Origin: a virus
Taxonomy: Duplodnaviria > Heunggongvirae > Uroviricota > Caudoviricetes
Virus record (IMG/VR): IMGVR_UViG_2718218135_000001
Location: 32,001-96,000 of that record
Length of the DNA stretch: 64,000 nucleotides
Reading direction: 5' to 3' (one strand)
The translations under genes and the position numbers were made by a program. Below, piece by piece: positions 5,876 through 49,361 of this stretch. The notes under the pieces were generated by a model, which ran no database searches, was not told the DNA's origin, and saw only the letters and a program-made list of their open reading frames with translations. Every line of letters starts with the position of its first letter. The stretch's first letter is position 1.

Positions 5876-6189
5876 GATGTTAATCCTTAATAAGAGTAAA
5901 AATAAAATTCTTGTATCGTTAGCGTGTTCGCTTTCGATGTGAGTAATTATCGATATGCAGAAATTAAAATCAAGAGTTTTTTACGCGGGAGCGAAAAAAT
6001 TTTTATTCAATAAAAATCAAAGTCTTAGAAATAAAACGCGTTTTCTCGAAGGTGTTGCCTAAATAAATTCCCTATTCGGTCAATCACCCTTATATATTTA
6101 AAGTGAAATCGGGATTAGGGAAAATAAATATAACGGGAAGTGACACATAAAATAATAACCGGACTTAGCCGGTTATCACCCTTATAGAT

Positions 6190-11476: not shown

Positions 11477-12111
11477 GCAAATACACCATCAACGTATCGT
11501 TTCAGACCCGCGTGAACAAAACCACGCGCACGCTGGAGATTGCCGAATCGTTCGGTCTTGGCCTGGACGAAAAAGAGTGGACGCTTTACGACAATCTGGA
11601 GCTGGAAGTGAAGCAGGGCGATGTGGTGTACATCACCGGCCAATCCGGTTCCGGTAAATCCGTTGTGCTGCGCGAGCTGCAACGCCAGATGAAGGATGAA
11701 GGGCTTTCTGTAGCCTCCATCGATGACTTTGCCTTCGACAATGAGGTTAACGTCATTGACCAGCTGGGCAAAACCACCAGCGAAGCGCTGGGGCTGCTGT
11801 CTATGGCCGGATTGAATGACGCCTATCTCTTTGTGCGTAAGCCATTCGAGATGTCTGACGGCCAGAAATACCGTCTCAAGATCGCCAAGCTGATCGAGTC
11901 CGGCGCGAAAGTCTGGGCTGCCGACGAATTTGGCGCTGTTCTCGACCGTGTAACCGCCCAGGTTGTGGCGTCGAACCTCCAGCGTGCCGCCCGTAAGGTT
12001 GGTGCGACGGTAATGGTGGCGACGACCCACGAAGACCTGAAGAACGCGCTGCGCCCGGATATGCAGATCACCAAGCACTACAAAGAACGCGTGAAGGTGG
12101 AATATGCCTGA
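11473..12111 (+). CDS. compact ABC-type ATPase (212 aa)
   Basis: Walker A GQSGSGKS, signature-like SDGQKYRL, Walker B VWAADEF, H-loop TTHE; ATGA overlap with upstream gene. Confidence 0.7.
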   Translation: MSKYTINVSFQTRVNKTTRTLEIAESFGLGLDEKEWTLYDNLELEVKQGDVVYITGQSGSGKSVVLRELQRQMKDEGLSVASIDDFAFDNEVNVIDQLGKTTSEALGLLSMAGLNDAYLFVRKPFEMSDGQKYRLKIAKLIESGAKVWAADEFGAVLDRVTAQVVASNLQRAARKVGATVMVATTHEDLKNALRPDMQITKHYKERVKVEYA

Positions 12112-12358
12112 TTTGAAGATCGTAGAGCTGAAGCCATCGAAAGAGGCTGACAACAACAACGTTGAAGTCATCCGCCTGCTGGAAGAAGCACTCCAGTACG
12201 CCAGAGAAGGCAAAAGCCAGAGCCTGGCACTGCTGATGATCAACAACGACGGCAGTGTGCTGGATTGCTGGCATAACGGTGGGCGTCCATACGTCATGGT
12301 TGGGGCGATAGAATCGCTTCGCCTGGACTTCATCAATGCCAATATCGAGCGTAGGTGA
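12104..12358 (+). CDS. hypothetical protein (84 aa)
   Basis: overlaps neighbours on both sides. Confidence 0.45.
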   Translation: MPDLKIVELKPSKEADNNNVEVIRLLEEALQYAREGKSQSLALLMINNDGSVLDCWHNGGRPYVMVGAIESLRLDFINANIERR

Positions 12359-13254
12359 TCGACATGACAGGCATCATCATCAAACGCTACCGCCCGGAAG
12401 AGTTCCCGCGTCATCTGGACTTTCTGGAGCGTATGACCGTTACCAAAGGCACGGTTGAAGACTGGCACGCGCTGAAGTCGCTGCACTACAAGACGGATGG
12501 TAAGCCGTTTGCGCCAACGTATTATCGCTGCGAACTGGACGACCGGCTGGTGGGCGTCGTGGTTATGGCTTACCCGAAACTGCTGCTGGCGCCTCGCCAT
12601 CGCATGTTTCCTAAGCTGAAGCCAACCACCAATACCACCGTGGCCAACCAGTATTGGGGGCGGTACGTGAACAACAACTTTGCGGTGATCAGCCGTTCCG
12701 TTGTGGACACTCAGTACCGCGGTGTCGGCGTCTCCTATCGAATGATTAACCTGGTTAGCAGGATGCATAACCGGCCAATCATCGAGATTCAGTCGTCCAT
12801 GAGCAAATACAACCCGTTCGCCATGAAAGCAGGGTTCCAGTTCATACGTCCGGAGCGTCCGAAGAGCTATGAGAGTGCGTTGCGTGTTTTCCAGCGCCAT
12901 TTTCGCTCCGACCCTGGAGACAACGAAGCGATCGTCAAAGAGCTGTTCGCCATGAGTGAGTCTCGCCGTCGTCGTGCGCTGCGCGATCTGGTCGCGGACT
13001 ACCACAAGAACAGTTCCCTGGCCAAAGCCGGGCGTAATCGTGGCACGACGATTCAGGATATTGCCGACAGTCTGGTGGACGAGGCCAGCATCGTGAAGTT
13101 GCTCAAGGATATTCACAACCTGAGCTTCACGTCTCCGCTGTATGGCGTGTATCGAAACCCGGACTTCGGTCGTCAGTTGCCTGACACGCTGCCACTGCTG
13201 GCATTCGATAAGCAGCCTTTGAATAAACCTCTTGAAATTGCATTACCGGCATAA
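12355..13254 (+). CDS. hypothetical protein with GNAT-like Q/R-x-x-G-x-G motif (299 aa)
   Basis: QYRGVGVS resembles acetyl-CoA-binding motif A; start GTG 12355 or ATG 12364. Confidence 0.5.
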   Translation: MIDMTGIIIKRYRPEEFPRHLDFLERMTVTKGTVEDWHALKSLHYKTDGKPFAPTYYRCELDDRLVGVVVMAYPKLLLAPRHRMFPKLKPTTNTTVANQYWGRYVNNNFAVISRSVVDTQYRGVGVSYRMINLVSRMHNRPIIEIQSSMSKYNPFAMKAGFQFIRPERPKSYESALRVFQRHFRSDPGDNEAIVKELFAMSESRRRRALRDLVADYHKNSSLAKAGRNRGTTIQDIADSLVDEASIVKLLKDIHNLSFTSPLYGVYRNPDFGRQLPDTLPLLAFDKQPLNKPLEIALPA

Positions 13255-13263
13255 GGATTTGCC

Positions 13264-13530
13264 ATGACGTTGACCGATAAACAAAAAGACATCATCAAAA
13301 CCATCAATTTAGGCCATGAGCGTGGGTATCTGCTCGATCTGGACGAGCTGCTTGAGGTTCTGCCGTACAAAACGACCAAACAGAGTATGCAGTTCTCTAT
13401 CCGCGCACTGGTGAAAAAGGGGCTGGTGGAGAAGGGAATGTGCCGCCAGCGCGGCGATTCAGGTTATCACCGTCGCACGCTGGGACTGACCACGTTAGGT
13501 CGTGCAAGAGCCAAATTACTGGTGATGTAA
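13264..13530 (+). CDS. small basic protein, possible winged-helix DNA binder (88 aa)
   Basis: ORF; basic C-terminus; sits directly upstream of the perfect inverted repeat. Confidence 0.45.
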   Translation: MTLTDKQKDIIKTINLGHERGYLLDLDELLEVLPYKTTKQSMQFSIRALVKKGLVEKGMCRQRGDSGYHRRTLGLTTLGRARAKLLVM

Positions 13531-13551
13531 ACCGGTCTGGGAGCCAGATTA

Positions 13552-13615
13552 AGAACCTGCTTCCGTATATATAATTAACTAAGTGATTAATTAAATATAT
13601 ACGGAAGCAGGTTCT
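13552..13615. repeat. perfect 21-bp inverted repeat with 22-bp AT-rich spacer
   Basis: agaacctgcttccgtatatat ... atatatacggaagcaggttct; one arm repeated exactly at 43887-43908. Confidence 0.85.
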
Positions 13616-13647
13616 GAAGGCTCCCCAGCCCGATTTTAAACACCCAG

Positions 13648-13662
13648 AAAACAAATTGGTTA
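13648..13662. promoter_or_regulatory. degenerate AAACAA box
   Basis: aaaacaaattggtta. Confidence 0.35.
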
Positions 13663-13673
13663 GGCACAGAATT

Positions 13674-13687
13674 AAACAAGTTGTTTA
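13674..13687. promoter_or_regulatory. AAACAA-N2-TTGTTT operator-like palindrome
   Basis: aaacaagttgttta, 40 bp upstream of the TerS start, followed by hairpin gagcgca-agga-tgcgctc. Confidence 0.5.
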
Positions 13688-13726
13688 GGAGCGCAAGGAT
13701 GCGCTCTGAGTGTTTTAGAGGGACCT

Positions 13727-14368
13727 ATGACTGTAGAAAAAGACGAGAGCAAAACTCGCCTGACACCAGCTGAGTGGGCAGAAGCCGAAGCGAAATGGAC
13801 TTCTGGCGAATACACACTCTCCAGGCTGGAGGAAGAGTACGGCATTCGTCGTGAAACGCTCTCCAGACATTTCAAAAAGCGTGGATTAGAGAAAGGCGCG
13901 GACTCCGTTGGGAAGATGGTGCGCGAGTCGCTCAAATCCGACGCAGAGCTGCGTGCGAAGGCGCGTGCAGAGAAAATCGAAGAGCGCCGGACTCGTTACG
14001 ACGATTGGGCGTTCGCACTCGGTCGTATGGTGATGCATGAGGTGGCCATAGCCAAGAAGGACGGCAGGCCACTGGCAGCCATCGAAGATGACCTGAAGAG
14101 TCTCCAGCGTGCCAGCGGCACACTTGCTAAGTGCTTCGAAATATCGTCGAAAGCGCTCGGTATGGATCGCGTGGAGAACGAGGACGACGAAATCCCGAAC
14201 CTGGTATTTGGCGAACTTACGCCTTCCCAGGTGGCGCAGCTGCGTAAGGAAGATGATGAGCCGGATCTGATTGATGACGATCTGCTTGAGTCACTCGAAG
14301 AGGAAGCACTGAGCGAAGCTGAGGGCGATTCTGAAGCGTCTGGTGATGAAAGTGATGGGAGCGTCTGA
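13727..14368 (+). CDS. terminase small subunit (putative)
   Basis: 213 aa immediately upstream of TerL; acidic C-terminal tail. Confidence 0.55.
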   Translation: MTVEKDESKTRLTPAEWAEAEAKWTSGEYTLSRLEEEYGIRRETLSRHFKKRGLEKGADSVGKMVRESLKSDAELRAKARAEKIEERRTRYDDWAFALGRMVMHEVAIAKKDGRPLAAIEDDLKSLQRASGTLAKCFEISSKALGMDRVENEDDEIPNLVFGELTPSQVAQLRKEDDEPDLIDDDLLESLEEEALSEAEGDSEASGDESDGSV

Positions 14369-14370
14369 CT

Positions 14371-15627
14371 ATGGCCATCCCGTCGTCTCTGAGTCTCGTA
14401 CAGCTGCATTCTGGGCAGATGCAAGTCTTCCAGTCGCCACATCGTTTCAAAGTGGTGTGTGCGGGTCGACGCTGGGGTAAATCCCGGTTGTCGATCTCCA
14501 CCATCATCCGCGCGGCAGCCAAAGAGAAGAAGCAACGTGTCTGGTATGTCGCACCGACTTACCAGATGGCTCGCCAGATCTTGTGGGATGACCTGCAGGA
14601 AGTTCTGCCGCGCAAATGGGTTCGTAAGAAAAACGACACCACGATGACCATCGTGCTGAAGAACGGCTCTGAAATCGCGCTGAAAGGTGCGGATAAGCCC
14701 GATACGCTTCGTGGTGTGGCACTGCACTTTGTGGTGCTCGATGAATTTCAGGATATGAAGCCTGACACCTGGTACAAGGTACTGCGTCCGACACTGTCCT
14801 CCACCCGTGGCGGTGCGCTGATCATCGGTACGCCAAAAGGCTTCTCCGAGTTCCACAAGCTGTGGACTATCGGTCAGAACAAAGATTTGCAACGCAAGGG
14901 GCAGTGGAAGAGCTGGCAGTTCGTTACGGCCGATTCTCCGTTCGTACCGAGCGCGGAAATCGAAGCAGCGAAGAACGATATGGACCCTAAATCGTTCGCA
15001 CAGGAATACCTGGCCAGCTTCGAAAACATGTCCGGACGCGTTTACTACCCGTTCGACCGCAATGTGCATGTGAAGCCACTCCAGTTCAATCCGAAACTGC
15101 CGATCTGGGTTGGTCAGGACTTCAACATCGACCCTATGTCATCGGTCATCCTGCAACCGCAGCCAAATGGTGAACTGTGGGCTGTGGACGAATTGGTGTT
15201 GTTCTCTTCTAACACGGCTGAAGTGTGTGACGAGCTGGAGCGTCGATACTGGCGCTGGAAATCTCAGGTCACTATCTTTCCTGACCCGGCAGGTGCGTAT
15301 CGCCAGCACGCACGCGGCGAATCTGACGTCGACATCTTCAAAGAGAAAGGTTTCCTTCGAGTCGATTATCCGAAGAAGCACCCGCCGATCGCAGACCGTG
15401 TTAACGCAGTGAACCGCATGTTGATGAGTGCCTCGGGCGAAACCCGGTTGTACATCGATCCGAAGTGCAAACACCTCATCGACTCGCTGGAGAAGGTGAT
15501 CTACAAGCCAGGCTCACGCGATATGGATAAGACTGGCGGCATCGAACACAGTGCGGATGCGTTGGGTTATCCGGTTCATCGTAGGTATCCGGTGAAAAAT
15601 CGTGTTATTCTTGGTGGATCTAGATAG
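14371..15627 (+). CDS. terminase large subunit
   Basis: Walker A CAGRRWGKS, Walker B VVLDEF, C-terminal nuclease-type acidic residues. Confidence 0.85.
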   Translation: MAIPSSLSLVQLHSGQMQVFQSPHRFKVVCAGRRWGKSRLSISTIIRAAAKEKKQRVWYVAPTYQMARQILWDDLQEVLPRKWVRKKNDTTMTIVLKNGSEIALKGADKPDTLRGVALHFVVLDEFQDMKPDTWYKVLRPTLSSTRGGALIIGTPKGFSEFHKLWTIGQNKDLQRKGQWKSWQFVTADSPFVPSAEIEAAKNDMDPKSFAQEYLASFENMSGRVYYPFDRNVHVKPLQFNPKLPIWVGQDFNIDPMSSVILQPQPNGELWAVDELVLFSSNTAEVCDELERRYWRWKSQVTIFPDPAGAYRQHARGESDVDIFKEKGFLRVDYPKKHPPIADRVNAVNRMLMSASGETRLYIDPKCKHLIDSLEKVIYKPGSRDMDKTGGIEHSADALGYPVHRRYPVKNRVILGGSR

Positions 15628-15642
15628 GTAAGTACTTACCTA
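15625..15642. promoter_or_regulatory. perfect 18-bp palindrome taggtaagtacttaccta
   Basis: overlaps the TerL stop codon, 19 bp before the portal start. Confidence 0.55.
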
Positions 15643-15660
15643 AGCGGAAAGGAAAATCAA

Positions 15661-17235
15661 ATGGAATTGACTGACAAGCAAATCAAAGACCTTGTGGCAC
15701 GACGCCACCCTGAATATGAGAAGAAAAAAGAACATTGGGACTTCCTCGCCAGCACCTACGCTGGCGGGCGTGCCTGGTTCAACGACAATATCTTCCGTTA
15801 CTTCAAAGAGGGCGATCAGGAGTTCAAAGAGCGCCTGGAACGCGCTTATCGCTTCAACCATACGCGCGAAGTGGTAAACCTCATCAACAAATACCTCTTC
15901 AAAGAGGTCATTCACCGCAACACTGATGAAGCACCGGAGCAGATCCGCAATTTCTGGAAGCGAGCCACGCGCCAGAACGCCTCCATCGATGCGTTTATGG
16001 CGGCTATCGATCTGCAATCATCCATTTATGGCCGTATCTGGGTTGTCGTGGATAGCACGATGAACGTCGATGTTGAGTCTGTTGCAGACGAGAAGAAAAA
16101 TGATGCGCGTGCCTACGCTTACTGGATTTCGCCGCAGCAGCTGCTTGATGTTGCCTGGGATGAAGACGGCAATATGTTGTGGGCGCTGATTGTTGAAATC
16201 GCGCGCGACGACGAAGATCCGTTCACTTCAACCGGGCAGGAATACCAGCGTTACCGTCTGTGGACGCAAAACGAGTGGTATCTGTTCCGTGAAGAAGTGA
16301 AGAAGGGTTCCGGAAATAGCGGTCGCCGTCAGGCCAAAGTCGTTCTGGAGGATAGCGGCCAGCATAATCTGGGCGTGGTGCCGGTGTTCCCGGTGGATTG
16401 CATTGGTGAAAGCGAGTCTCCGTATTTTAGCCCGTCGTTGATTGACGATATTGCCTATCTTGATCGCGCCGTGGCCAACTACCTGTCGAACCTTGACGCG
16501 ATTATTCAGGATCAGACATTCAGCCAGTTAGCGATTCCGGTTCAGTCCCTGCTGCCGGGCGATGAAAACCACACCAAAGTGCTCGAAATGGGGACAAAAC
16601 GTGTCTTCACCTTCGATTCTGAGAGCGGTAATCAGCCATTCTATCTGTCTCCAGACCCGAAACAGGCTCAGATGATCATCACCACGATTAAGACGGTGAT
16701 TAATGAGATCTACCATTCCGTTGGTGTGGCTGGTGAGCGAACCAAGCAGGATAACGCGCAGGGTATCGACAACTCTTCGGGGGCAGCGAAGATGTACGAC
16801 TTCCAACGTATTAACAGTCTGCTGGTGACAAAAGCAGAGCGCCTCGAAAGGGCAGAACGCCAAATGATGGAGTTGGCTGCGAAATGGATGGGCATCGAAT
16901 TGGATGAAGACCACTCTCTGATCGCTTACCCGGAGAGTTTCGATATTCGTGGTCTGACTGACGAATTTGCCGTCGCTGAGAAATTGTCGCTGTTACAGGC
17001 GCCTGATTCTGTACGTCGTCATCAGATGGAAATGCTCATAGAAAAGATCTTCCCGAATATTTCCGAAGCGATGCAAAAGGAATTTAAAAAAGATCTCTTG
17101 AAATTTCCTCTAAAAAATGCTCCTGATGCCCTTGAAAATAAGTTAGTACTTACTTATGATCGCGATACAGTCCAAGGAAGCGGACAAGATCAACCCCGAG
17201 GGAATGGGGACTCATCTACTCAAGAGACCGAGTGA
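15661..17235 (+). CDS. portal protein
   Basis: 524 aa directly after TerL in canonical order. Confidence 0.75.
   Translation: MELTDKQIKDLVARRHPEYEKKKEHWDFLASTYAGGRAWFNDNIFRYFKEGDQEFKERLERAYRFNHTREVVNLINKYLFKEVIHRNTDEAPEQIRNFWKRATRQNASIDAFMAAIDLQSSIYGRIWVVVDSTMNVDVESVADEKKNDARAYAYWISPQQLLDVAWDEDGNMLWALIVEIARDDEDPFTSTGQEYQRYRLWTQNEWYLFREEVKKGSGNSGRRQAKVVLEDSGQHNLGVVPVFPVDCIGESESPYFSPSLIDDIAYLDRAVANYLSNLDAIIQDQTFSQLAIPVQSLLPGDENHTKVLEMGTKRVFTFDSESGNQPFYLSPDPKQAQMIITTIKTVINEIYHSVGVAGERTKQDNAQGIDNSSGAAKMYDFQRINSLLVTKAERLERAERQMMELAAKWMGIELDEDHSLIAYPESFDIRGLTDEFAVAEKLSLLQAPDSVRRHQMEMLIEKIFPNISEAMQKEFKKDLLKFPLKNAPDALENKLVLTYDRDTVQGSGQDQPRGNGDSSTQETE
17138..17157. promoter_or_regulatory. TAAGTA-N-TACTTA-like box inside portal coding sequence
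   Basis: ataagttagtacttacttat within the 3' end of the portal ORF. Confidence 0.35.
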
Positions 17236-17257
17236 TAAGTAACGAAAAGGTATTTCT

Positions 17258-18154
17258 ATGAATCTGTGGCAAATGCTTATGGCCCGTCGTGGCCTGATGG
17301 ATGTAGCCGAAGCGCATGAGCGCGGCGGCGCTGGTGGCGGTGCTCCTGCTGGAGACAATGAGCAGAGCATTCAAGACCCAGGCAAACAGGGCGAGCAAAA
17401 AGAGCAACCGAAGGGTGACGACGACGAGTATGCCGGTATGACTCAGGAAGAGTTGCTGGCAGAACTGCGTAAGTCTAAGAAAGCCGGTGCTGATCTGTTG
17501 AAAGAGAATATGAAGCGCAAGGAGAAAGAGCGCACATTGGCCGATCAGCTGGCTCAGTACGGTGATATTGACCCGACGCGTGCTCGTCAGCTTCTCGAAG
17601 CTGAACAAGCCGCAGAAACCGCACGTCGGGAGGCGGAGCAGGCTGAACTGGAACGTCGTGGTGAGTTCGATGCTGTGAAAAAGCAGATGATCGAAGCACA
17701 CCAGACTGAACTGGCACAGCGCGACGAACGCTACGCCGCTCTGGAGAGCGAGAACGCCGCACTGAAGGCTCAACTGGTCGAAATGACTGTTGGTGTTTCC
17801 TTCAGCAGTTCTGCTTTCCTGCGTGACAAAGTTCTGATGACTCCGGCTAAGGCACGCGTTATCTACGGCTCTCATTTCGAAGTGGGTGAAGACGGTAGTG
17901 TTGTGGGCTTTGATAAGCCAGCCGGTCAGAAAGAACGTGCAGTTCTGGTTGACGGTGAAGGCAAGCCGTTACCGTTCGAATCCGCGATTGAGCGCATTCT
18001 GCGTGCAGATCCGGAAGCTGACGCACTGTTGCGTAGCGAAGCCAAGCAGGGTGCTGGTTCCAATAGCAAACCGCCCCACAAAGTAAGCCAGCCGAAGAGC
18101 AAGTCGACTATGGATAAGTTGACCTCCGGTCTGGGAAAAATCGGACTCAAGTAA
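17258..18154 (+). CDS. capsid scaffolding protein (putative)
   Basis: E/A/Q/R-rich coiled-coil-type sequence between portal and capsid genes. Confidence 0.6.
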   Translation: MNLWQMLMARRGLMDVAEAHERGGAGGGAPAGDNEQSIQDPGKQGEQKEQPKGDDDEYAGMTQEELLAELRKSKKAGADLLKENMKRKEKERTLADQLAQYGDIDPTRARQLLEAEQAAETARREAEQAELERRGEFDAVKKQMIEAHQTELAQRDERYAALESENAALKAQLVEMTVGVSFSSSAFLRDKVLMTPAKARVIYGSHFEVGEDGSVVGFDKPAGQKERAVLVDGEGKPLPFESAIERILRADPEADALLRSEAKQGAGSNSKPPHKVSQPKSKSTMDKLTSGLGKIGLK

Positions 18155-35504: not shown

Positions 35505-35548
35505 TTGTGTGGGCAGGGACGCCCACACTTCAAGGAGTGAAAAAGAAC

Positions 35549-38500
35549 ATGTGGTACAGGGAAGGCACTGTTACATTTACAAAAGGAAGCGACACAATAT
35601 CAGGCATCGGAACACGTTGGAATTTGACCGAAAACGGCGTGTTACCGGGCATGATTGTCATTGGTCCTGACAATAAGTTGTATGAGGTCAAGCGCGTAAC
35701 CAGTGATAAGGTCATTGTTCTCTCAGAACCTTATACCGGCGAAACTCAATCTAAAGTTCCGTGCCGAATCATTACGACCTATGAAGGCGACTTAACTCAG
35801 TTTAGTGCGCGCTTTACTGCACTAATGTCGCGTATGTCGGCTGATTCCAAGTCCATGCGCAGTTGGTTGACCGCTCTGGATGATGTGACAATCGAGCGTG
35901 AAGACGGTACAGAAGTGACCGTTAAGCCGCTAATGCAGATCGTCAACGAGCATAACGAAAACGTTGAGTGGTATAAAAATAACACCGATGCGATTGAGGC
36001 CGCTGGAGACAAAGCTCGGGAGGCGGCGGCCAGTGCTGTCGCTGCGGCAGAAAGTGCCAACACTGCTGTAGAAAAAGCCTCTCAGGCATCTCAAAGTGCA
36101 TCCGCTGCGGTATCTTCACAAAGTGCGGCGAGTGAGAGTGCAGCTGCTGCGGAAAAATCTGAAACAAACGCAGAAGCGGCAAAAGAAGCGGCAGCAGAAT
36201 CAGCATCTGTGGCGTCGACTAAAGCATCGGAGGCAGCCACATCAGCGTCCAGTGCCTCTGCATCTAAGGATGCGGCTAAATTATCAGAGACTAACGCTTC
36301 ATCGAGTGCAAACGCGGCAGCATCATCAGCTACAGAAGCTGCAAATTCATGTAAGGCAGCAAAAGCATCAGAGACAAACGCAAAAGCGTCTGAAGCTGCT
36401 GCCGAACAGAGTGCATTGTCTGCAAACAGTTCGAAATCTGCGGCAGAAACGTCAGCGAGCGCGGCCTCAGTAAGCGCGGATAGTGCTTCATCAAGTGCAA
36501 CGTCGGCAGAAAAGTCTGCGGAAAGCGCTTCGTTATCTGCGGCAAATGCCACCGCTAAAGCGACAGAGGCGACGAAACAGGCAACAGCTGCGGAAAAGTC
36601 AGCAGAGGCGGCAAAATCTTCTGAAACCAATGCAAAGACTTCAGAAGACAATGCCGCTGCTTCTAAGGAGACAGCAGCCGAATCTGCAAGCTCTGCCTCT
36701 GTTTCAGCTTCCTCGGCGTCATCTTCAAAAGATGAGGCCGCTCGCCAGGCGTCAGCGGCAGCAGAGAGTGCGACAACGGCATCAACGAAGGCGACGGAAG
36801 CGGCAGACAGTGCGACGGAGGCTGCGCAGAGCAAAAATGCGGCAGAATCCGCGGCAACACGCTCTGAGACAGCGGCAAAACGAGCTGAGGATATTGCATC
36901 CGCCGTGGCGCTTGAGGATGCGAGCACGACGAAAAAGGGGGTAGTACAGCTCAGCAGTGCGACCAACAGCACGTCTGAAACGCTGGCGGCAACGCCAAAA
37001 GCCGTTAAGGCCGCGTATGACCTGGCTAACGGGAAATACACCGCACAGGATGCAACGACAGCACAGAAAGGGATAATCCAGCTAAGCAGCGCGACCAACA
37101 GCACGTCTGAAACGCTTGCCGCGACACCAAAGGCAGTAAAAGCAGCCAATGACAATGCTGAGAAACGTCTGCAGAAAGATCAGAACGGTGCGGATATCCC
37201 TGGCAAAGATACCTTTACGAAAAATATTGGTGCCTGCCGTGCCTTCGGTGGGTCAGTAAGCACAACAACAGGAAACTGGACGACTGCACAGTTTATCGAG
37301 TGGCTGGATTCTCAGGGAGCATTTAACCATCCATACTGGATGTGCAAGGGTTCCTGGTCTTATGGCAATAATAAAATCATTACTGATACTGACTGCGGTA
37401 ATATTCATCTCGCCGGAGCTGTCATTGAAGTAATGGGGATAAAGTCAGCGATGACGATCCGCATTACCACACCGACCACCTCCACTGGTGGTGGAACAAC
37501 TAACGCCCAGTTTACCTATATTAATCACGGAACAGATTATTCACCTGGCTGGCGAAGGGACTATAACTCCAGAAATAAGCCAACGGCATCAGAGATCGGG
37601 GCGTTACCGTCAGGTGGAACAGCAGTATCATCAGTTAATCTGGCTTCAAAAGGTCGGGTAACCGCGCTGACAGACAATACGCAGGGGGCAGCAGGTCTTG
37701 AGTTATACGAGGTGTATAACAACGGATATCCAACAGCGTATGGAAATATCATTCACCTGAAAGGGATGACAGCCGTTGGCGAAGGTGAGTTACTCATCGG
37801 CTGGAGTGGTACAAGCGGTGCTCATGCTCCGGCATTTATTCGTTCACGACGGGATACGACCGACGCAAACTGGTCGCCGTGGGCGCAGCTTTACACCTCG
37901 GCTCATCCTCCTGCAGAGTTTTATCCAGTCGGTGCACCAATCCCGTGGCCATCAGATACCGTTCCGTCTGGCTATGCCCTGATGCAGGGGCAGACTTTTG
38001 ACAAATCTGCATACCCGAAACTTGCAGTTGCTTATCCGTCAGGCGTGATCCCTGATATGCGTGGCTGGACGATTAAGGGCAAGCCCGCCAGTGGTCGGGC
38101 CGTATTATCTCAGGAACAGGACGGCATTAAATCGCACACCCACAGCGCCAGCGCATCCAGTACGGATTTGGGGACGAAAACCACATCGTCGTTTGATTAC
38201 GGAACCAAATCCACGAATAACACCGGGGCGCATACCCATAGTATTAGCGGGACCGCAAATAGTGCCGGTGCGCACCAACACAAGAGTTCCGGTGCATTTG
38301 GTGGCACGAACACGAGCATTTTCCCTAATGGTTATACCGCGATTTCAAATCTAAGCGCGGGGATTATGAGCACAACAAGCGGTAGTGGCCAGACTCGTAA
38401 TGCAGGGAAGACATCATCAGATGGTGCTCATACCCACTCGCTGTCCGGCACAGCTGCATCTGCAGGTGCACACGCACATACTGTCGGTATTGGTGCTCAT

Positions 38501-38614
38501 ACGCACTCGGTTGCGATTGGCTCACATGGACACACCATCACCGTTAACGCTGCTGGTAACGCGGAAAACACCGTCAAAAACATCGCATTTAACTATATTG
38601 TGAGGCTTGCATAA
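35549..38614 (+). CDS. side tail fibre protein
   Basis: two copies of tail-fibre repeat [21 protein letters not shown]; long A/S/E-rich shaft; C-terminal HxH motifs. Confidence 0.8.
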
Positions 38615-40780: not shown

Positions 40781-41302
40781 TTATTCTTCGAACAATTTTT
40801 CGATAGATTTTGTTGGATAGAACAAAGAACGATCGTTGTTACCAACCAGCTGGATAAAGCCCAAACTTTTATAAAACGCCCTAGCTTTATCGTTCAACGC
40901 CTCAACGAAAAGCCCATGAATGCCTACCGCAAGAGATGCATTGTACACAACACGCATTGCGTGAGTTACAAGCATTGAGCCAAACCCCTGACCTTGAAGA
41001 GATTTGTCCAAAGCCAGTCTGCCTAAAGTGATACTTGGGACATTCCGATAAGGCACTTTCTTTTGCTGACTCTTTGAAGGTAAGGTTTCTTTCTCAAAGC
41101 AGCTGCCTGACAAAGTGTAATAACCTAATACCTTTGGTATTTCTTCTTTAGTGCAAAGCACATAAGCGCGAAGAATTTTTCCTTCATGCTGTCTTTTTAA
41201 GTGGTTGGTCAAAAATGCGTTTAGTGACTCTTCGCCGCAATCAAAACCGTTTAGATCATAATCTTTCTCTCCAGAGAAAATCTCGATCGTCGTATTGCTC
41301 AC
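40781..41302 (-). CDS. GNAT-family acetyltransferase toxin (TacT-like)
   Basis: GNAT motifs; paired with upstream small antitoxin. Confidence 0.7.
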   Translation of the reverse strand: MSNTTIEIFSGEKDYDLNGFDCGEESLNAFLTNHLKRQHEGKILRAYVLCTKEEIPKVLGYYTLSGSCFEKETLPSKSQQKKVPYRNVPSITLGRLALDKSLQGQGFGSMLVTHAMRVVYNASLAVGIHGLFVEALNDKARAFYKSLGFIQLVGNNDRSLFYPTKSIEKLFEE

Positions 41303-41863: not shown

Positions 41864-41898
41864 CATACGACAATAATTCACGCAAAGGAAACTCACCA

Positions 41899-42564
41899 AT
41901 GACCAAGATCATTGTGGTTGGCGGCACAAAAGGCGGCCCAGGCAAATCTACCGTTGCCCAGCAAATTGCGGTATGTCTCAAAGTTAAAAAGAAAAAGAAG
42001 GTTCACGTCACCGATATCGATATCCAGCGCACCACGACCAGCTGGTGTGAAGACCGTCGCCAGAACGAAGATCTTGAACTGATCCCGTTCGCTTATGTGC
42101 AGGACGACATCGTCAAACATCTTAAATCGCTTCAGGGGCGAACTGATTATGTAGTGGTAGATGCTGGTGGCTTTGACTCCGAAATTCAGCGTCTGGCGAT
42201 GCTTATGGCTGATGTAATCATCATCCCGCTGCGCCCTAAACGTCGTGATTTGAAATCTCTGCGTGATATCGACCCGATTATCGACAACGTTCGCAATGTG
42301 AACGAGAAAGTTAAGATCCGCGCGGTAATAAACCAGTGTCCGTCATTGCCTTCCCAGGTATCACGTATTCTGGCCGCGAAGGAAATTGTCGAAACTTTCG
42401 GCATCGAGGCTGCGCCGGTCAATCTGTACAACCGTAACGTTTATGACGATGCGGAAGAGGCAGGTCGTTCTATCTTTGAAATGACTGGCGCTGAACGCGA
42501 TAAGAAGGCAGAAGCCGAGTTCGAAGAGTTTGTAGATTACATCTTGAGTCTGGAGGAAGAATAA
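41899..42564 (+). CDS. parA: ParA-family partition ATPase (small, type Ib-like)
   Basis: deviant Walker A GGTKGGPGKST; 221 aa. Confidence 0.85.
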   Translation: MTKIIVVGGTKGGPGKSTVAQQIAVCLKVKKKKKVHVTDIDIQRTTTSWCEDRRQNEDLELIPFAYVQDDIVKHLKSLQGRTDYVVVDAGGFDSEIQRLAMLMADVIIIPLRPKRRDLKSLRDIDPIIDNVRNVNEKVKIRAVINQCPSLPSQVSRILAAKEIVETFGIEAAPVNLYNRNVYDDAEEAGRSIFEMTGAERDKKAEAEFEEFVDYILSLEEE

Positions 42565-43743: not shown

Positions 43744-43886
43744 TATTGCATCTCTTAGCTACTGACTAATGCGTTCTATTTTACACATAAGTTTTTAATC
43801 AATTTTACAGGCTCAAAGTGTAGAGCTTCTGGGTGTCTAAGACGACAAGTTATGCCTGTTTCTGTATATAAATAATAAGTAACTTA

Positions 43887-43908
43887 TTAAATATATACGG
43901 AAGCAGGT
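43887..43908. repeat. third copy of the 22-bp element ttaaatatatacggaagcaggt
   Basis: exact match to one arm of the 13.55-kb inverted repeat. Confidence 0.85.
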
Positions 43909-43990
43909 CTTTTAAAAGACACCCACCAGAACAACTCCCTTCCGTTTCCACTTCCCAAAAATATCTCCAGTCGCTATGATTCGCTCACTT

Positions 43991-44012
43991 AGATAAGTAA
44001 GTACATACCTAT
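43991..44012. promoter_or_regulatory. TAAGTA-N-TACTTA palindromic box
   Basis: agataagtaagtacatacctat upstream of gene 44026. Confidence 0.45.
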
Positions 44013-44025
44013 TAAAGGGAATCAT

Positions 44026-44751
44026 GTGAGCCAGATCTTCTTCAACACTATCGACAATGACCAGTACGATTTCATGACAGAGTGGAATACCGCTGTTATG
44101 GACAAGTGGGTCGCTGAAAACATTGGTTTGTCGCGCTGTAAAGACGAGGCTGAACTCTTCGAGACGAAGTGGTTTGATTACCGCGACATGCACCCACTTA
44201 TGGCCACATGCCTTTTCACTGAGGCATACAAGCGCCAGTACTCATACATCATGCTGTCGCATGGTCGTGAACACTATGAGACGGCTCCATTCACAACCGG
44301 TCTGAAGCGTGTGCCATATCAGGAGTTGTCGACGGTCAACAAAACGTCGCTCTGGAAAGCACGCCAGTTTGCTGACCGCTATTGCTGCTCATACGACTAC
44401 TTTATCTCCACCGTTCTTTCCGCAGCTGCACGACGGCTGTGGGACAAATTACCGCGCCCCCAGCATCTCTGGCAGCCCGAGTTGATCGAGATATTCGAAG
44501 AGAAGTTAGCCAAACGCGCTGTAACCCGTCTGGATGACTCTCTGGTGAGTTTTAAGCATCTTGGAGACATGCAGCGTGACCCGATTCAGGAACGCTATTT
44601 TGAGTGGATTCTGGAGCGTCTGCGTGGCATTACCCGAGATAAACGCATCCGTATCATCTTCTCCGCTGTCTGGTTGATGGAAATCGTGCCTGAGCGTGTG
44701 ATTTACGCGCACTTCCCGGAAGAACTGGAAGAAGCACGGCGATTCTGTTGA
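44026..44751 (+). CDS. hypothetical protein (241 aa), possible replication accessory
   Basis: GTG start; directly upstream of helicase. Confidence 0.45.
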   Translation: MSQIFFNTIDNDQYDFMTEWNTAVMDKWVAENIGLSRCKDEAELFETKWFDYRDMHPLMATCLFTEAYKRQYSYIMLSHGREHYETAPFTTGLKRVPYQELSTVNKTSLWKARQFADRYCCSYDYFISTVLSAAARRLWDKLPRPQHLWQPELIEIFEEKLAKRAVTRLDDSLVSFKHLGDMQRDPIQERYFEWILERLRGITRDKRIRIIFSAVWLMEIVPERVIYAHFPEELEEARRFC

Positions 44752-44777
44752 TCCCCTATCTGGCTTTTTTAGTATTA

Positions 44778-44793
44778 GAAAACAAATTGTTTA
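44778..44793. promoter_or_regulatory. AAACAA-N2-TTGTTT operator-like palindrome
   Basis: gaaaacaaattgttta, 19 bp upstream of helicase ATG. Confidence 0.5.
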
Positions 44794-44811
44794 AGCACCA
44801 AAGGAAAGCAC

Positions 44812-46152
44812 ATGACCGAACTTTGCCACACAGGACGAGGGTTGTCTGAAGAGTTCGACGACGACTTCCAGAATCGACTCGCAGCCTACTTCTGTCGCGA
44901 CCATGAATTTCTGACTCGCGCCGGTGATCTGGTTGCGCCAAACCAGTTCTCCAATGCGGCCAACGCCATTCTGGTGAACATGGTGTCGGGCTACTATAGA
45001 ATGTATAAGAGCGCACCATCATCATCAGCCATCCTCGACATGCTCAAACGCGCCAAACGCGATAAGACGATCCGCGAAGAGCTGTTCCCTGACGTTGTTG
45101 AGGCGTTTAAGCGCATTCTCGCTGAGAAGCTGTCAGATACGGCGTACATGGTCGACCAGGTCGCGACATTTGCTAAAAGCGTAGCGTTCGACGATGCGCT
45201 AATTAAAGCGGCTGAGATGAAAGAGAAGGGCGATTTCCAGGGCGCGATGGCAATCATGGCTAAGGTCCAGCAAATTGGCTCTAACGAAGCGACCGGCATT
45301 TACGATTACTTCGCAGAATCAGCGGAGCGTTACAAGGCCCGTGAGTACGAAGCGTCCGACGATTACGTGCCAAACAGCATCACTACCGGCCTCCCGCTGC
45401 TCGACAAACTGCTTTACCAGAAAGGCTGGGCAAAGCGTGAAATGGTGCTGTTTATGGGCTTCGCTAAGTCTGGTAAATCGACGGCGATGGGGGAGTTTTC
45501 CATCAACGCCACGCTTGCCGGTTACAACGTCCTGTATCTGTCGCTGGAAGTTCACACCTCCATTCTGTCAGATCGCTTTGACGCCCGTCTGTCTGAGACC
45601 GAAATGTCCAGGCTGGTGGAACGTCGCGATGACGTCCATCGCAAACTGGCGGAGCTGGGTGCGACGAAAGGCGTGGGAAGTTTGTGGATTGTTGAACGAC
45701 CGTCCGGAAGCATGTCGCCCGCAGATCTGGACCGTATGTTGGGCAGCATGAAAGCCAACGGTATGGTCCCCGATATGGTTGTGGTCGACTACGCTGACCT
45801 GATGCGTGCCAGCTACGACCTCCGCGACGACCGCGCTAACATTCGCAGCATCTACACTGACCTGCGTGCGCTGTACGACAAACACAACGTTGCCGGCATC
45901 ACGGCATCGCAGACTAACAGAGAAGGTGGCGCTTCTGAGGTGGCTACAATGATGCACGCAGCGGACAACATCGAGAAGGTGCGTATCGCTGATCTCGTTA
46001 TCACTATCAACAAAACGGAAGAAGAAGAAGCGAAAGGCGAAGCGCGTCTTTACTTCGCTGGTTCACGTAACCAGAAAGGCGGCGTAAGCATCCGCGTTAA
46101 GCAGAACCTCGAACAAATGCGATTCATCGAACGCATTATGGACGTCATCTAA
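44812..46152 (+). CDS. DnaB-like replicative helicase
   Basis: Walker A GFAKSGKST in a RecA-like C-terminal domain. Confidence 0.7.
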   Translation: MTELCHTGRGLSEEFDDDFQNRLAAYFCRDHEFLTRAGDLVAPNQFSNAANAILVNMVSGYYRMYKSAPSSSAILDMLKRAKRDKTIREELFPDVVEAFKRILAEKLSDTAYMVDQVATFAKSVAFDDALIKAAEMKEKGDFQGAMAIMAKVQQIGSNEATGIYDYFAESAERYKAREYEASDDYVPNSITTGLPLLDKLLYQKGWAKREMVLFMGFAKSGKSTAMGEFSINATLAGYNVLYLSLEVHTSILSDRFDARLSETEMSRLVERRDDVHRKLAELGATKGVGSLWIVERPSGSMSPADLDRMLGSMKANGMVPDMVVVDYADLMRASYDLRDDRANIRSIYTDLRALYDKHNVAGITASQTNREGGASEVATMMHAADNIEKVRIADLVITINKTEEEEAKGEARLYFAGSRNQKGGVSIRVKQNLEQMRFIERIMDVI

Positions 46153-46239
46153 AAAAGAAGGCGTGGGGAAACACTCTCCACGCCTGTCTCCAGAAGAGAA
46201 CAAATTTCTCTTTTGCCAAAACCACAAAAGAAAAAACAC

Positions 46240-47424
46240 ATGAGCCTTTATGGTATTCAAATACCGAGGCTTATCAAGATATTACCTGCAAAAAACAGGG
46301 GTAAGAACGTGAGCGACTTGAAAGAATTACTGACCGAGCTGGATTTTGAGCAATGGCTCGATATGGAAGGGATCATCTACCGTCGTGGTGGAGTCAGTAC
46401 TCGCGGACGAGAGGTCAACATTAAAGAGTGTCCGGTATGCGGCAGCTCAAACTGGAAGGTTTATTTCAACCTGACCAGTGGTGTCGGCAAATGCTTTGCA
46501 GGTGATCATCCCGAAGAGATTCAGTTCAACAAGCTGGTCTTCCTAAAGCATTACAGCGGCAAATCTCGTCGCGATTTTGAAGAGTACGTCCAGAACGCGC
46601 TGATCTCACAAGGATGGGCACCGAAGAAGGAAGAGATCGTACTGGCCAGCAAGGTTGAACTGGAAGGACCGGTAGCTCTCCCGCGCCATTACGAACTCCC
46701 CATTGACGGTCGTCTTCCTGATTATCTGGTGGAGCGCCAGATTTCCCCGGAGCTGGCCAAATACTTTGATCTGCGTTACTGCGTCGAAGGCAAGCACGCA
46801 TACGTCGATCCGTACACAGACCAGGTCAAAGGACAGGTATTCGATATGCGAATACTGATACCGGTTTACGATCTGGATGGCGTGATGAAGACCTTCCAGG
46901 GTCGTGACATTACCGGTGCAGCAGAACGCCGGTATCTGTTCCCCATGCAGCTGCCAGCATCGGGTAAATTTCTCTACAACGGCCACAATGCAGTCGGCAA
47001 ACAGACTGTAGTTGTCTGTGAGGGGGCGTTCGATGTTATGGGGGTTAAACGAGCTATTTTTGATGAAGAAACATTACGCGATTACGTGGAACCGATAGGA
47101 ACGTTCGGGATGCATCTATCTGGTAACACCACTCAGGATGCAGAAGATCAGTTGGGCGCGTTCCTGACGCTCAAGGCGCGTGGATTACGTAATGTGATTA
47201 TGATGTGGGATAGTGAAAAGCAAGCTATACGCAACACGATGGCCGCAGCCAGGCGACTGACCAGTATCGGTCTTAATGTCAAAGTAGCGTGTTTGGGCGA
47301 GGAAGGACTCGATCCCGGCGATGCGACACCGGGGCAGATTATCAAAGCCTACTATTGCGCAAAACCTTATTCACGACAGCTTGAACTTTTAAGCAAGGTA
47401 AAAGGCATAGCTGCATTAGTTTGA
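46240..47424 (+). CDS. DNA primase (zinc-binding plus TOPRIM)
   Basis: CPVCGSSNW...C zinc motif, TOPRIM-like VVVCEGAFDV; start uncertain. Confidence 0.7.
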   Translation: MSLYGIQIPRLIKILPAKNRGKNVSDLKELLTELDFEQWLDMEGIIYRRGGVSTRGREVNIKECPVCGSSNWKVYFNLTSGVGKCFAGDHPEEIQFNKLVFLKHYSGKSRRDFEEYVQNALISQGWAPKKEEIVLASKVELEGPVALPRHYELPIDGRLPDYLVERQISPELAKYFDLRYCVEGKHAYVDPYTDQVKGQVFDMRILIPVYDLDGVMKTFQGRDITGAAERRYLFPMQLPASGKFLYNGHNAVGKQTVVVCEGAFDVMGVKRAIFDEETLRDYVEPIGTFGMHLSGNTTQDAEDQLGAFLTLKARGLRNVIMMWDSEKQAIRNTMAAARRLTSIGLNVKVACLGEEGLDPGDATPGQIIKAYYCAKPYSRQLELLSKVKGIAALV

Positions 47425-47557
47425 ACCAGTATTATCAACGGCTCGGAAGTGTCTAAATTATCCGTGGCGATTCATAACCTTGCGGCTGCTCGCCCCATCA
47501 AGAAGCATCTTTAACGCGTCACGGGACAATTTGTTGTATTTGCGTACCATTAATTTA

Positions 47558-47935
47558 CTACGCCGTACCATACAATCTACGTAACGTGGCAACGACAGTA
47601 GATACGGATACCTCTCCGGTCGCAGCCCCCACAGTAAGCTCTGCCAGTTCTGGTGAATCATATACCTGCACACCGTTACGGCGCAGAAATAACAACGCAC
47701 TGTTTAGCGCGGTACGCTTATTGGCATCATTGAATATATGCCCTCTCGCAGTAGCCACCAGGTAAGTTGCGGAGACTTCGAAAAGGTCGGTAATCTCTTC
47801 ATATGCAACTCTGGCCTGGACTCTCCCGATAATAGCCTCAGCTCTTCCCGAATCTGACATGCCTGGCAGGCCGCCGTAGCGGCTTATATTCGCATCATGA
47901 ATTGCAGTAAGCTCTTCCGGTGATATATGCCTCAT
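47558..47935 (-). CDS. doc: Doc toxin (Fic family)
   Basis: near-identical to phage P1 Doc as recalled; Fic-type motif [11 protein letters not shown]. Confidence 0.9.
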
Positions 47936-48156
47936 TATCGGTTAACCAGTTTCTTATTGGTGGTGTCCAGAGTGTCAAACAGGGATGCGAATTCAGCATC
48001 CAGCGCCGCTTTTTTGTAGGCTTCGAAAGTGGCCTTGCTGACAATTACAGCTGGCTCACGGCCTCTACGGGTGATTTCAACCTCTTCTCCGGCTTCAACA
48101 TTGTTGAGCACTTCGGTAAGATTGCTGCGTGCGGTACGGAAGTTAATAGATTGCAT
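47935..48156 (-). CDS. phd: Phd antitoxin
   Basis: matches P1 Phd as recalled; stop overlaps doc start. Confidence 0.9.
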
Positions 48157-48340
48157 AAACATCTCGTGTACTCAATATGTGTACGCAATTATAGAGCTTA
48201 ATTGCCCACTACTCCATCATTTTATCCAGTGCGCCTTATACCTCCACTCTGAAGGACGGGGTTTTAGGGCGCTCTGGATAAAAACACACGTACTTTCTCT
48301 CCGAAAGTACGTGAAAAGTAGCGACTAACCACCATGCTCA

Positions 48341-49351
48341 TTAGTCGTAGGATACGGCAAATATCGCCTGGCCTTGAACTTCCCCAGGCTGTAAAGCTTC
48401 CTCTTTCACGCGAACGTATTTTGCGGTAATCGGGAAGATGTACTGTTCCTGAATAGCCGCCATTTTAGGTAATCTGTTCATCAGGGTATCGCCCAGCTTT
48501 AACGGTGTCGTTGCATTACCATTGTAAATCTGGAACCCTACACCCTTAGCACCATCGGACAATGTATTTTTCAATATTGTTCCACTATCATCCCACACAC
48601 CACGCTCAACTTTAAAAGTCACTGGATTAGTCGTGACGTTATAGACACTATCGCAATTTAGGACCAGATCTACAGAACCTGATTTTGAGTTATTGGCAGA
48701 TAGCATCTCACTTATCGTTGTTTCTGGTATTCTTATTTCGTAAGTCGGTTGCGAGAAACGACAGGTTGTGGGTTTGTGTTTAACAGTAATGGTTAGTTTT
48801 TGTTCGTAAGCATCGCCTTTATTTAACAACCCCAATAAATTGCACAATATCCATGAAAAAATATTTGAACTGCATTGATTATCAGATAAAAAGTTACCCG
48901 CTGGCTTTTTTAATTCGAATGAATCCCCCTCTACCGCTTCACCATGATCACTTCTATATGTAGTTGGTGGTATATATGAGGCCGTTAACTTCAGTTGTTT
49001 ATTATTAATGGTATCAGCAACAGAATAGGTTTTAGGCGACAGAAGCGAACCACTCGTTTCTACAGGAAATCCATCAGCCTCAAGCTTTAATTTAATAAAA
49101 ATAGACTTATTGCTGGAGCCATCTTTCATTTCAACAATATAGTCATCTAACGTTGTTGCAAAATACATCTTATCCCCCCTCGAGTTACATTCATAAGATC
49201 CTTGCAGGTTGGGATTAAAACTTACTATTGTTGAATCCCTTGTTAAGTCCAGTGTAATTGGTTGAGTTGCTGTCCAAGTTCCCTTAGGGGTACATTTCGC
49301 CTGCCCAAAAAATGGAATAATCAACAAAAACAAAAACCAATATTTCTTCAT
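48341..49351 (-). CDS. fimbrial adhesin / minor subunit
   Basis: signal peptide MKKYWFLFLLIIPFFGQA; last gene of chaperone-usher operon. Confidence 0.6.
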   Translation of the reverse strand: MKKYWFLFLLIIPFFGQAKCTPKGTWTATQPITLDLTRDSTIVSFNPNLQGSYECNSRGDKMYFATTLDDYIVEMKDGSSNKSIFIKLKLEADGFPVETSGSLLSPKTYSVADTINNKQLKLTASYIPPTTYRSDHGEAVEGDSFELKKPAGNFLSDNQCSSNIFSWILCNLLGLLNKGDAYEQKLTITVKHKPTTCRFSQPTYEIRIPETTISEMLSANNSKSGSVDLVLNCDSVYNVTTNPVTFKVERGVWDDSGTILKNTLSDGAKGVGFQIYNGNATTPLKLGDTLMNRLPKMAAIQEQYIFPITAKYVRVKEEALQPGEVQGQAIFAVSYD

Positions 49352-49361
49352 AAAAAATCCT

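Follow-up and report, generated by a model that had tools for sequence, protein, structure and literature searches.

Bacteriophage P1 provides the paradigm for addiction by Phd-Doc. In this system the Doc kinase inactivates EF-Tu, and the antitoxin Phd neutralises Doc, represses the operon together with it and is degraded by ClpXP, the outcome being post-segregational killing. In a survey of phage-plasmids, phd/doc was listed among the persistent genes of the P1-like group (Pfeifer et al. 2021; PMC7969092), and toxin-antitoxin systems and PapC/PapD pilus genes were found in the shell genome of the SSU5 supergroup (PMC7969092).

Here we describe a phd-doc operon in a 64,000-nt stretch of Caudoviricetes DNA, positions 32,001-96,000 of the IMG/VR record IMGVR_UViG_2718218135_000001. 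This whole stretch is referred to below as the window, and all positions are given in its coordinates. The locus shares with P1 Phd-Doc (PDB 3K33, 3HRY, 3DD7, 3KH2) the operon layout, the TAATG overlap of the two genes, the Doc motif HIFNDANKR, the operator, the -10 box and the start of the gene that follows doc, pdcA. Unlike the P1 operon, it shows 8-10% nucleotide divergence, with 10 substitutions in Doc and 4 in Phd; its -35 region and humD side are replaced and its pdcA is truncated; and it is set in a siphovirus phage-plasmid with a fimbrial operon adjoining. In the literature we found no account of this allele, of an origin in a chromosomal island or of an IS-bounded replacement in SSU5-like elements.

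A P1-family phd-doc operon beside a fimbrial operon

The two genes fill exactly the interval assigned to the module in a preliminary description of this DNA, 47558-48156. On the minus strand, doc (47558-47935) encodes a Fic-fold toxin of 125 aa and phd (47935-48156) an antitoxin and repressor of 73 aa, counted from the canonical ATG. The mechanical ORF of phd is longer (47935-48162, 75 aa) because of a private SNP; the canonical start is the second ATG, at 48156. The phd stop codon overlaps the doc start codon at 47935, as it does in P1, in a bicistronic operon with the antitoxin first. Both genes are intact in the window.

When the PDB sequences were searched with phmmer, Doc matched P1 Doc (3k33_A) over residues 1-125 with E=8.7e-72, and Phd matched P1 Phd (3hry_A) over residues 1-73 with E=3.8e-40. 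Profile searches placed Doc in Pfam Fic (36.7 bits, cutoff 24) and TIGR01550 DOC_P1 (123.8 bits, cutoff 38.65), and Phd in Pfam PhdYeFM (PF02604; 48.7 bits, cutoff 29.8) and TIGR01552 (45.8 bits, cutoff 20.8). The kinase-type motif of Doc proteins, H-x-F-x-[DN]-[AG]-N-K-R, is intact at residues 66-74. Doc is one residue shorter than its P1 counterpart (125 vs 126 aa) and identical to it at 115/125 positions (92.0%, 10 differences), and Phd is identical to P1 Phd at 69/73 positions (94.5%, 4 differences). In the C-terminal Doc-binding segment of Phd (residues 52-73), 2 of 22 residues differ from P1, through the changes S65T and E69K. The Doc change I10T is private to the plasmid lineage; chromosomal copies of the gene have I10. 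A codon-by-codon comparison with P1 counted 38 nucleotide differences in doc and 15 in phd, giving a dN/dS of 0.098 for each gene and a dS of 0.37 for doc and 0.25 for phd. A dN/dS near 0.10 at such dS values indicates that purifying selection has been long-lasting. Aligned with P1 phd-doc by blastn, the DNA was 90.9% identical over 47477-48193. The kinship with P1 that the preliminary description had recognised therefore stands, low identity not having been seen, and the proteins are indeed close, but its wording "nearly identical" overstates a DNA identity of ~91%.

P1-like DNA is limited to these 717 bp (47477-48193), which reach from the -10 box of Pphd across the operator and both toxin-antitoxin genes into pdcA, of which 25 codons remain at the 5′ end. 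In a three-way alignment of the window, a chromosomal copy and P1, the pdcA remnant (pdcA′, 47475-47550, minus strand) is cut by an IS terminus. At the other end, the phd control region (48157-48193, minus strand) was delimited by alignments with P1, P7, D6 and JL22 and by the P1 annotation of Pphd. It comprises, all on the minus strand, the -10 box TATAAT (48193-48188), the operator half-sites TGCGTACACA (48187-48178) and GAGTACAC (48173-48166), and the Shine-Dalgarno sequence. The predicted palindromic operator overlaps the promoter and reads TATAAT-TGCGTACACA-TATT-GAGTACAC, compared with TATAAT-TGTGTACACA-TAAC-GAGTACAC in P1, so that the half-sites are those of P1 except at one base, which D6 shares. 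Alignment with P1 showed that the -35 region of the P1 promoter is not conserved here, and a consensus promoter scan called no promoter. Homology to P1 stops at the upstream edge of the -10 box, beyond which the sequence is unrelated to the humD end of P1; phage D6 departs from P1 at the same point. A G-to-A change in the phd Shine-Dalgarno sequence, which turns GAGG into GAGA and is present in this window alone, could shift the antitoxin:toxin ratio.

The fimbrial cargo, described earlier as lying downstream, does adjoin the module on the plus strand; by transcription it is upstream of phd, with a terminator-like hairpin between the adhesin gene and the phd promoter (48287-48313, minus strand; an 11-bp stem and then a run of T residues). 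A suspected res site or inverted repeat of the Tn3 family at 48250-48290 was ruled out, since the repeat found there is this fimbrial terminator hairpin and, among plasmids, the surrounding 48194-48345 occurs only in the 22 island-bearing ones described below. The operon itself (48341-53150, minus strand) is of the chaperone-usher type and has four genes, recognised by Pfam Fimbrial, Usher, PapC_N/C and PapD_N and by the PGAP annotation of a sister plasmid. These encode a YehD-type major subunit (52602-53150; NCBIfam YehD, 197 bits), a chaperone (51866-52600), an usher (49362-51854) and an adhesin (48341-49351), each on the minus strand. Identification as F17 fimbriae is disfavoured: the major subunit differs from F17e-A (PMC4267768), and NCBIfam places it with YehD. 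Beyond the operon lie a partial IS2-group element (53281-54270, minus strand), which is 95.6% identical to ISEc36 and carries Pfam rve and HTH_21 and NCBIfam IS2 TnpB matches, and a terminal fragment of IS1 (54375-54409) that abuts the IRL of an IS3-family piece and matches both the P1 IS1 terminal repeat and an IS1-adjacent stretch of the sequence L006.

An SSU5-like phage-plasmid backbone

The genes for the large terminase, portal, major head protein, 1,530-aa tape measure and J-like central tail fibre gave siphovirus PHROG matches, and the window also encodes tail fibres, ParA and a GNAT-type toxin. Its primase is 93.2% identical in amino acid sequence to that of Salmonella phage SSU5 and 92.2% to that of E. 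coli phage Cyrano. Across 43855-47399 and 54874-59351 the backbone DNA is ~91% identical to SSU5, with gene order conserved. When the whole window was compared with P1 (1-48,000) and P7 (48,000-97,900) by blastn and tblastx, only three shared pieces were found: phd-doc, a tail-fibre mosaic at 36.9-37.9 kb (71-77% nt) and a tRNA-Asn. Apart from the tail-fibre mosaic, none of the P1-type structural, replication or immunity genes that characterise P1-like phage-plasmids (Punavirus) was detected against these P1 and P7 segments. The window does have the helicase-primase-ligase block, siphovirus morphogenesis genes and ParA of the SSU5/pHCM2 family. The non-P1 virion background seen in the preliminary description is borne out by these matches, by the primase and by how little is shared with P1 and P7.

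SSU5, Cyrano and PhiR41_1 resemble the window in helicase-primase-ligase order, ParA, a GNAT/DUF1778 toxin-antitoxin pair, siphovirus structural genes and tRNA-Asn. They differ from it in the slot after the primase gene, which holds a sel1-repeat-type gene in SSU5 and is empty in Cyrano and PhiR41_1, where the next backbone gene comes straight after the primase.

Relationship of the allele to the P1 family

A megablast search of a phage collection matched 47477-48193 to members of the P1 group (P1, P7, D6, JL22, SJ46, RCS47 and others) at 89.8-91.6%. The only record from outside that group was a Klebsiella phage, matched over 54 bp of IS fragment, and at megablast level the SSU5-group members of the collection yielded no P1-type phd-doc. 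Among P1, P7, D6, JL22 and a P1-type plasmid, pairwise identity is 96-99%; the window allele matches each of them at 90-92%. With the 717-bp module as query, PLSDB returned 22 plasmids at 99% or above, none at 95-99%, 1,104 at 90-95% and 113 at 80-90%. Some 1,200 further plasmid matches from the first search were considered as closer phd-doc alleles and rejected, because they matched a 51-bp IS fragment instead. Judged by these identities, the window allele is a sister of the P1 alleles, not a recent export from P1.

The 22 plasmids with at least 99% identity are from E. coli (one is labelled Enterobacter sp.) and are mostly 106-134 kb in size, the largest reaching 218 kb. Common to them are a primase on one side of the module and a fimbrial protein on the other. 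Both phd and doc are annotated in 21 of the 22; the remaining record has hypothetical proteins. Because the module comes with a 5′ fragment of pdcA, modular ancestry from a P1-like element is real. The exchange of addiction cassettes suggested earlier is correct to the extent that a P1-family module, with that fragment, is present in an SSU5-like element, but not in the sense of a recent or direct exchange with P1.

Copies in chromosomal tRNA-Phe islands

The interval 47475-48345 was found on many complete E. coli chromosomes at 99.5%, with phd-doc copies at 99.5-99.7%. In NZ_CP016404 the order is dsbD, tRNA-Phe, a P4-type integrase, an IS911-like fragment, a pdcA pseudogene, doc, phd, adhesin, usher, chaperone and YehD-type subunit, with an IS3-family element beyond the last of these. 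The position of phd-doc beside an island integrase is consistent with a role in island stabilisation. The exact Phd sequence occurred in 3,285 index blocks, and contigs >1 Mb are present in 75 of these. We read ten chromosomal loci, which were situated next to pheV (on the yqgA/speC/mltC side), next to pheU (on the dsbD/cutA side) or in surroundings rearranged by IS elements. The Phd protein was identical in all ten and the fimbrial operon complete in eight. In three of the ten, doc had been cut to 8 codons by IS1 with phd surviving, so the toxin is dispensable at those loci.

Overall, 47475-53276 is 98.4-99.7% identical to tRNA-Phe islands. CP055181 matches this whole interval without a break at 98.4%, adhesin allele included. 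NZ_CP016404 is at least 99% identical to 47475-53100 outside two stretches, the N-terminal half of the adhesin (48675-49300, 60-73%) and the last 600 bp (96-97.5%). The pheV/pheU islands, of which these two are examples, are thus like the window in DNA, in Phd and in the order pdcA′-doc-phd-terminator-fimbrial genes. They are unlike it in that an IS911-like fragment and a P4-type integrase come next to their pdcA′, the IS3-family element past the fimbriae is another one, most have the other adhesin N-terminal allele, and Doc has I10. The chromosomal pdcA′ has 33 codons and continues past codon 25, the point at which the plasmid copy breaks off; being longer and uninterrupted, it marks the plasmid copy as the derived state.

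The ISEc36-like element of the plasmid is only 76-81% identical to the IS at the same chromosomal position, a mismatch indicating that the immediate donor is unsampled. Outside the plasmid lineage, no candidate donor in which the IS interrupts pdcA′ was detected among 5,426 complete E. coli genomes, metagenome contigs and species-representative genomes. A metagenome scan for the donor junction gave one match, in the same SSU5-like context, and one other that has no similarity to the window and is apparently due to chance. In the plasmid, GGCGATTCATAACCTTGCGG is preceded by the primase; its donor counterpart would have a full IS copy before GGCGATTCATAACCTTGCGG.

IS fragments and junctions of the block

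Two pieces of a single 1,229-bp IS3-family element, located by blastn to a full copy (positions 1323-2551 of L003), flank the cargo. The 3′ piece (47424-47474, plus strand), which comes after the stop codon of the primase gene, is the last 51 bp of the element, positions 1179-1229, including the IRR. The 5′ piece (54410-54845, plus strand) is the first 437 bp from the IRL, in direct orientation to the other. The PGAP product name of the element is only "IS3 family transposase", and full copies were found in 179 genomes of the complete E. coli set (5,426).

Junctions were defined by three-way alignment with a native sister plasmid (L025). At the left junction (47424-47434), 11 bp, AACCAGTATTA, are common to the native backbone and IS positions 1179-1189. 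At the right junction (54837-54845), 6 to 9 bp, GCCTGGCTT (GCCTGG(C/T)TT), are common to IS positions 429-437 and the native backbone. The 7.4 kb between them (47435-54836) have replaced ~1.8 kb of the native sequence that follows the primase gene directly. In the sister plasmid pJH51-3, whose primase is 99.9% identical, the native slot holds a small ORF and a sel1-repeat gene that is homologous in position to SSU5_041. The 22 bp at 54846-54867 had been taken for filler; pJH51-3 shows them to be native backbone. Recombination junctions had been predicted near 47.45 and 48.2 kb. The first is present, as a backbone/IS boundary at 47424-47434 and an IS terminus/pdcA′ boundary at 47474/47475. The second turned out to be an older edge of P1 homology inside the island, and the right end of the acquisition is at ~54.84 kb instead.

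The arrangement resembles IS-bounded cargo capture of the composite-transposon kind in that pieces of one IS3-family element bracket the cargo in direct orientation and one IS terminus forms a clean insertion junction in pdcA′. It differs in that the IS copies are truncated to 51 bp and 437 bp and the crossovers with the backbone are at short identities. Only IS positions 1179-1229 and 1-437 are present, with the intact termini facing the cargo, and no target-site duplication was found, the flanks being TAA and TAT. Since the backbone-facing IS ends are truncated and a target duplication is lacking, the block is not a transposition product.

An SSU5-type primase is encoded by 548 PLSDB plasmids, in 41 of them at 99% identity or more, and 22 of these 41 have the fim/phd-doc block. 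Four other E. coli plasmids of the same sublineage carry DprA + RecQ/HAD-type cargo. In the one that we read, p1585m1_B, the DprA cargo lies between the same IS/backbone junctions, with IS positions 1179-1229 on the left and 315-437 on the right. Others among the 41 have the gene of the native slot, or a sulfatase cluster accompanied by ISVsa5 and a complete copy of the IS. An ancestor with the two cargoes in tandem (DprA + fim/phd-doc) is unsupported, as none of 11 DprA-cargo plasmids was among the 22 island-bearing ones. The same junctions around different cargo could have arisen in either of two ways: (i) a single founding event followed by exchange of cargo through the IS remnants or (ii) repeated use of the same short identities.

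It is also conceivable, if rather unlikely, that the slot is a reusable cargo dock. IS-flanked DNA from chromosomes or other plasmids might be swapped in there time and again by short homology in the IS remnants, perhaps with the help of phage recombinases, or a transposase acting in trans might join IRR to IRL and capture circular DNA, for example excised genomic islands. The intact IRR and IRL face each other across the cargo, and the DprA + RecQ-like helicase cargo of the sister plasmids begins at the same IRR terminus.

Discussion

We consider it probable that the window carries an intact P1-family Phd-Doc type II toxin-antitoxin system as cargo of an SSU5-like (pHCM2-family) E. coli phage-plasmid, acquired with fimbriae as a segment of a tRNA-Phe island. 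The sequence comparisons show the following order of events. A P1-like segment, which extends from the -10 box of Pphd through the operator and both genes into the 5′ end of pdcA, had stood for a long time beside the fimbrial operon in E. coli pheV/pheU islands. An island version bounded by copies of the 1,229-bp IS3-family element then entered one SSU5-like sublineage, where the sel1-repeat gene and small ORF after the primase gene were swapped out by two crossovers at the short identities of IS and backbone (11 bp on one side, 6 to 9 bp on the other). Because a single island segment was swapped in by way of two IS crossovers, phd-doc and the fimbriae arrived together as one block. This route of acquisition is ordinary mobile-element mosaicism.

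By analogy with P1, the function of the pair is likely to be classical Phd-Doc addiction. Doc would be a Fic-fold kinase that phosphorylates EF-Tu and halts translation. The C-terminal segment of Phd would bind Doc, and Phd with Doc would repress the operon at the palindromic operator that overlaps the promoter. With Phd unstable, cells that have become free of the replicon would be poisoned. In the plasmid, phd-doc would be a second addiction system beside the GNAT/DUF1778 pair. Since that pair and ParA are already there, any added maintenance benefit of phd-doc is uncertain.

These residents bear on a different reading, in which phd-doc is a passive passenger of the plasmid: the block would be kept for its fimbriae or by drift, and the real role of the pair would be to stabilise the chromosomal island. 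Arrival in one block with the fimbrial operon would suit such a passenger, as would the Shine-Dalgarno mutation in the window. The loss of doc to IS1 with retention of phd in three of the ten chromosomal contexts is the usual path of decay of a dispensable toxin-antitoxin system. Both genes are nevertheless intact here and are so annotated in 21 of the 22 PLSDB plasmids, and an intact Doc with a labile Phd would addict the cell whether selected for that or not. We regard the passenger role as unlikely, although it deserves to be taken seriously.

We are more doubtful that the module serves mainly in competition between elements, with Phd acting as an anti-addiction factor against the Doc of a co-resident P1-type element or the pair aborting phage infection. 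P1-type phd-doc is present in >1,200 enterobacterial plasmids, so the two types must often meet, and the window Phd is 94.5% identical to P1 Phd, with 20 of 22 residues of the binding segment unchanged. The two that do differ, S65T and E69K, might instead alter specificity.

Transfer in the reverse direction, with a block assembled in the plasmid and passed on afterwards to chromosomal islands, seems very improbable. Strain YY76-1 has both a plasmid and a chromosomal copy, as such a transfer would allow, but the chromosomal pdcA′ continues uninterrupted through the exact point at which the IS cuts the plasmid copy, chromosomal settings are both more frequent and more diverse, with pheV as well as pheU and two alleles of the adhesin, and sister plasmids still have the native backbone DNA that the plasmid block displaced. 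A direct and recent cassette exchange between P1-like and SSU5-like phage-plasmids, both of which are low-copy plasmid prophages of E. coli, would account for a cassette-sized homology block of 717 bp and for the retained pdcA fragment that proves P1-like ancestry, but it is already largely refuted, and hardly credible, in view of the nucleotide divergence of ~9% that separates the allele from all P1-family copies (1,104 plasmids lie at 90-95%, whereas the 95-99% range is empty), the dS of 0.25-0.37, the 99.5-99.7% identity to chromosomal islands that already have the module joined to the fimbrial operon, and plasmid junctions that fall in the IS fragments at 47.43 and 54.84 kb and not at the edges of P1 homology.

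As a close and already automatically annotated relative of the best-studied Doc/Phd, the pair adds little to what is known of mechanism. Its interest lies in its history. A P1-derived addiction cassette established itself in E. coli pheV/pheU islands and from these, joined to an adhesin operon, reached a transmissible SSU5-like phage-plasmid, where it occupies a hot spot for cargo after the primase gene. The locus is a concrete case, at base-pair resolution, of traffic from a chromosomal island to a phage-plasmid. If the slot does act as a reusable dock, phage-plasmids would have a defined route by which to gain and package chromosomal island segments, including addiction modules. Virions of this lineage could spread a colonisation factor together with a stabilising toxin-antitoxin pair, and cross-talk between the Phd of the window allele and the Doc of the very common P1-type plasmids is a testable question.

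Contents of the slot after the primase

The intergenic slot after the primase gene differs in content among near-identical sister plasmids. This slot spans 47424-54868 in the window, 10212-17547 and 10227 onward in two sister-plasmid loci (L023 and L024, respectively) and 5227-7018 in the native sister plasmid pJH51-3 (L025). In the native state it holds a sel1-repeat gene; elsewhere it carries DprA together with a RecQ/HAD-type helicase, or a sulfatase cluster accompanied by ISVsa5 and a full copy of the IS3-family element, or the fim/phd-doc block. The IS/backbone junctions that bound the DprA cargo are the same as those that bound the fim/phd-doc block.

In the left fragment of the IS3-family element, we found a 1-bp deletion at window 54719/54720, directly after the A7G slippery run that serves as the programmed-frameshift site in full copies of the element. 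Thus, the reading frame is altered even in this fragment. Also, a partial IS2-group element with 95.6% identity to ISEc36 lies at window 53281-54270. At the corresponding position beside the fimbrial operon, the chromosomal islands carry another IS3-family element that is only 76-81% identical.

Changes in phd and doc

A one-base change at window 48162, private to the window, converts the phd Shine-Dalgarno from GAGG to GAGA, and the same change yields an extra ATG, in frame with phd and located 6 nt before its normal start. GAGG is kept in the sister plasmid pLAO59, in 10 chromosomal copies and in every P1-type copy read. Of the 10 chromosomal loci that were read, three (L012, L015 and L016, at about 8222-8260) have an intact phd but a doc that IS1 has cut to 8 codons.

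Other plasmid and phage features of the window

The second toxin-antitoxin pair of the window is KacAT/TacAT-like and consists of a GNAT acetyltransferase toxin (40781-41302, minus strand) and a DUF1778 antitoxin encoded by the small ORF just upstream. This pair, which adjoins the ParA partition gene (parA, 41899-42564), is conserved among the sister plasmids as well as in phage Cyrano. An 81-nt "tRNA-Lys" reported by ARAGORN on the minus strand at 41887-41967 overlaps the parA start and looks like a false call. The tRNA-Asn that ARAGORN placed at 59235-59309 matches that of SSU5 and has 91% identity to that of P7.

Within the tail-fibre gene (35507-38614), the segment at 36900-37900 has 71-77% nucleotide identity to the variable part of the P1 tail-fibre gene S/Sv'. 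It is a second P1-related mosaic piece in the window, unrelated to phd-doc. MOB-suite assigned pLAO59 (L001) to IncY, which is the replicon type of P1, and classed it as mobilizable; its near-identical sisters were typed as IncFIB or IncFIA and non-mobilizable. A 367-aa tyrosine recombinase (60379-61482) matching integrase PHROGs may provide a dimer-resolution or integration function for this plasmid-prophage.

Fimbrial adhesin alleles

The N-terminal half of the fimbrial adhesin (window 48675-49300), presumably the receptor-binding part, shares only 60-73% identity with its counterpart in most chromosomal islands, whereas the flanks of this divergent stretch are at least 99% identical to the islands. 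The window's allele is also present on chromosome CP055181 (L014). Therefore, the same fimbrial operon circulates with at least two different adhesin alleles.
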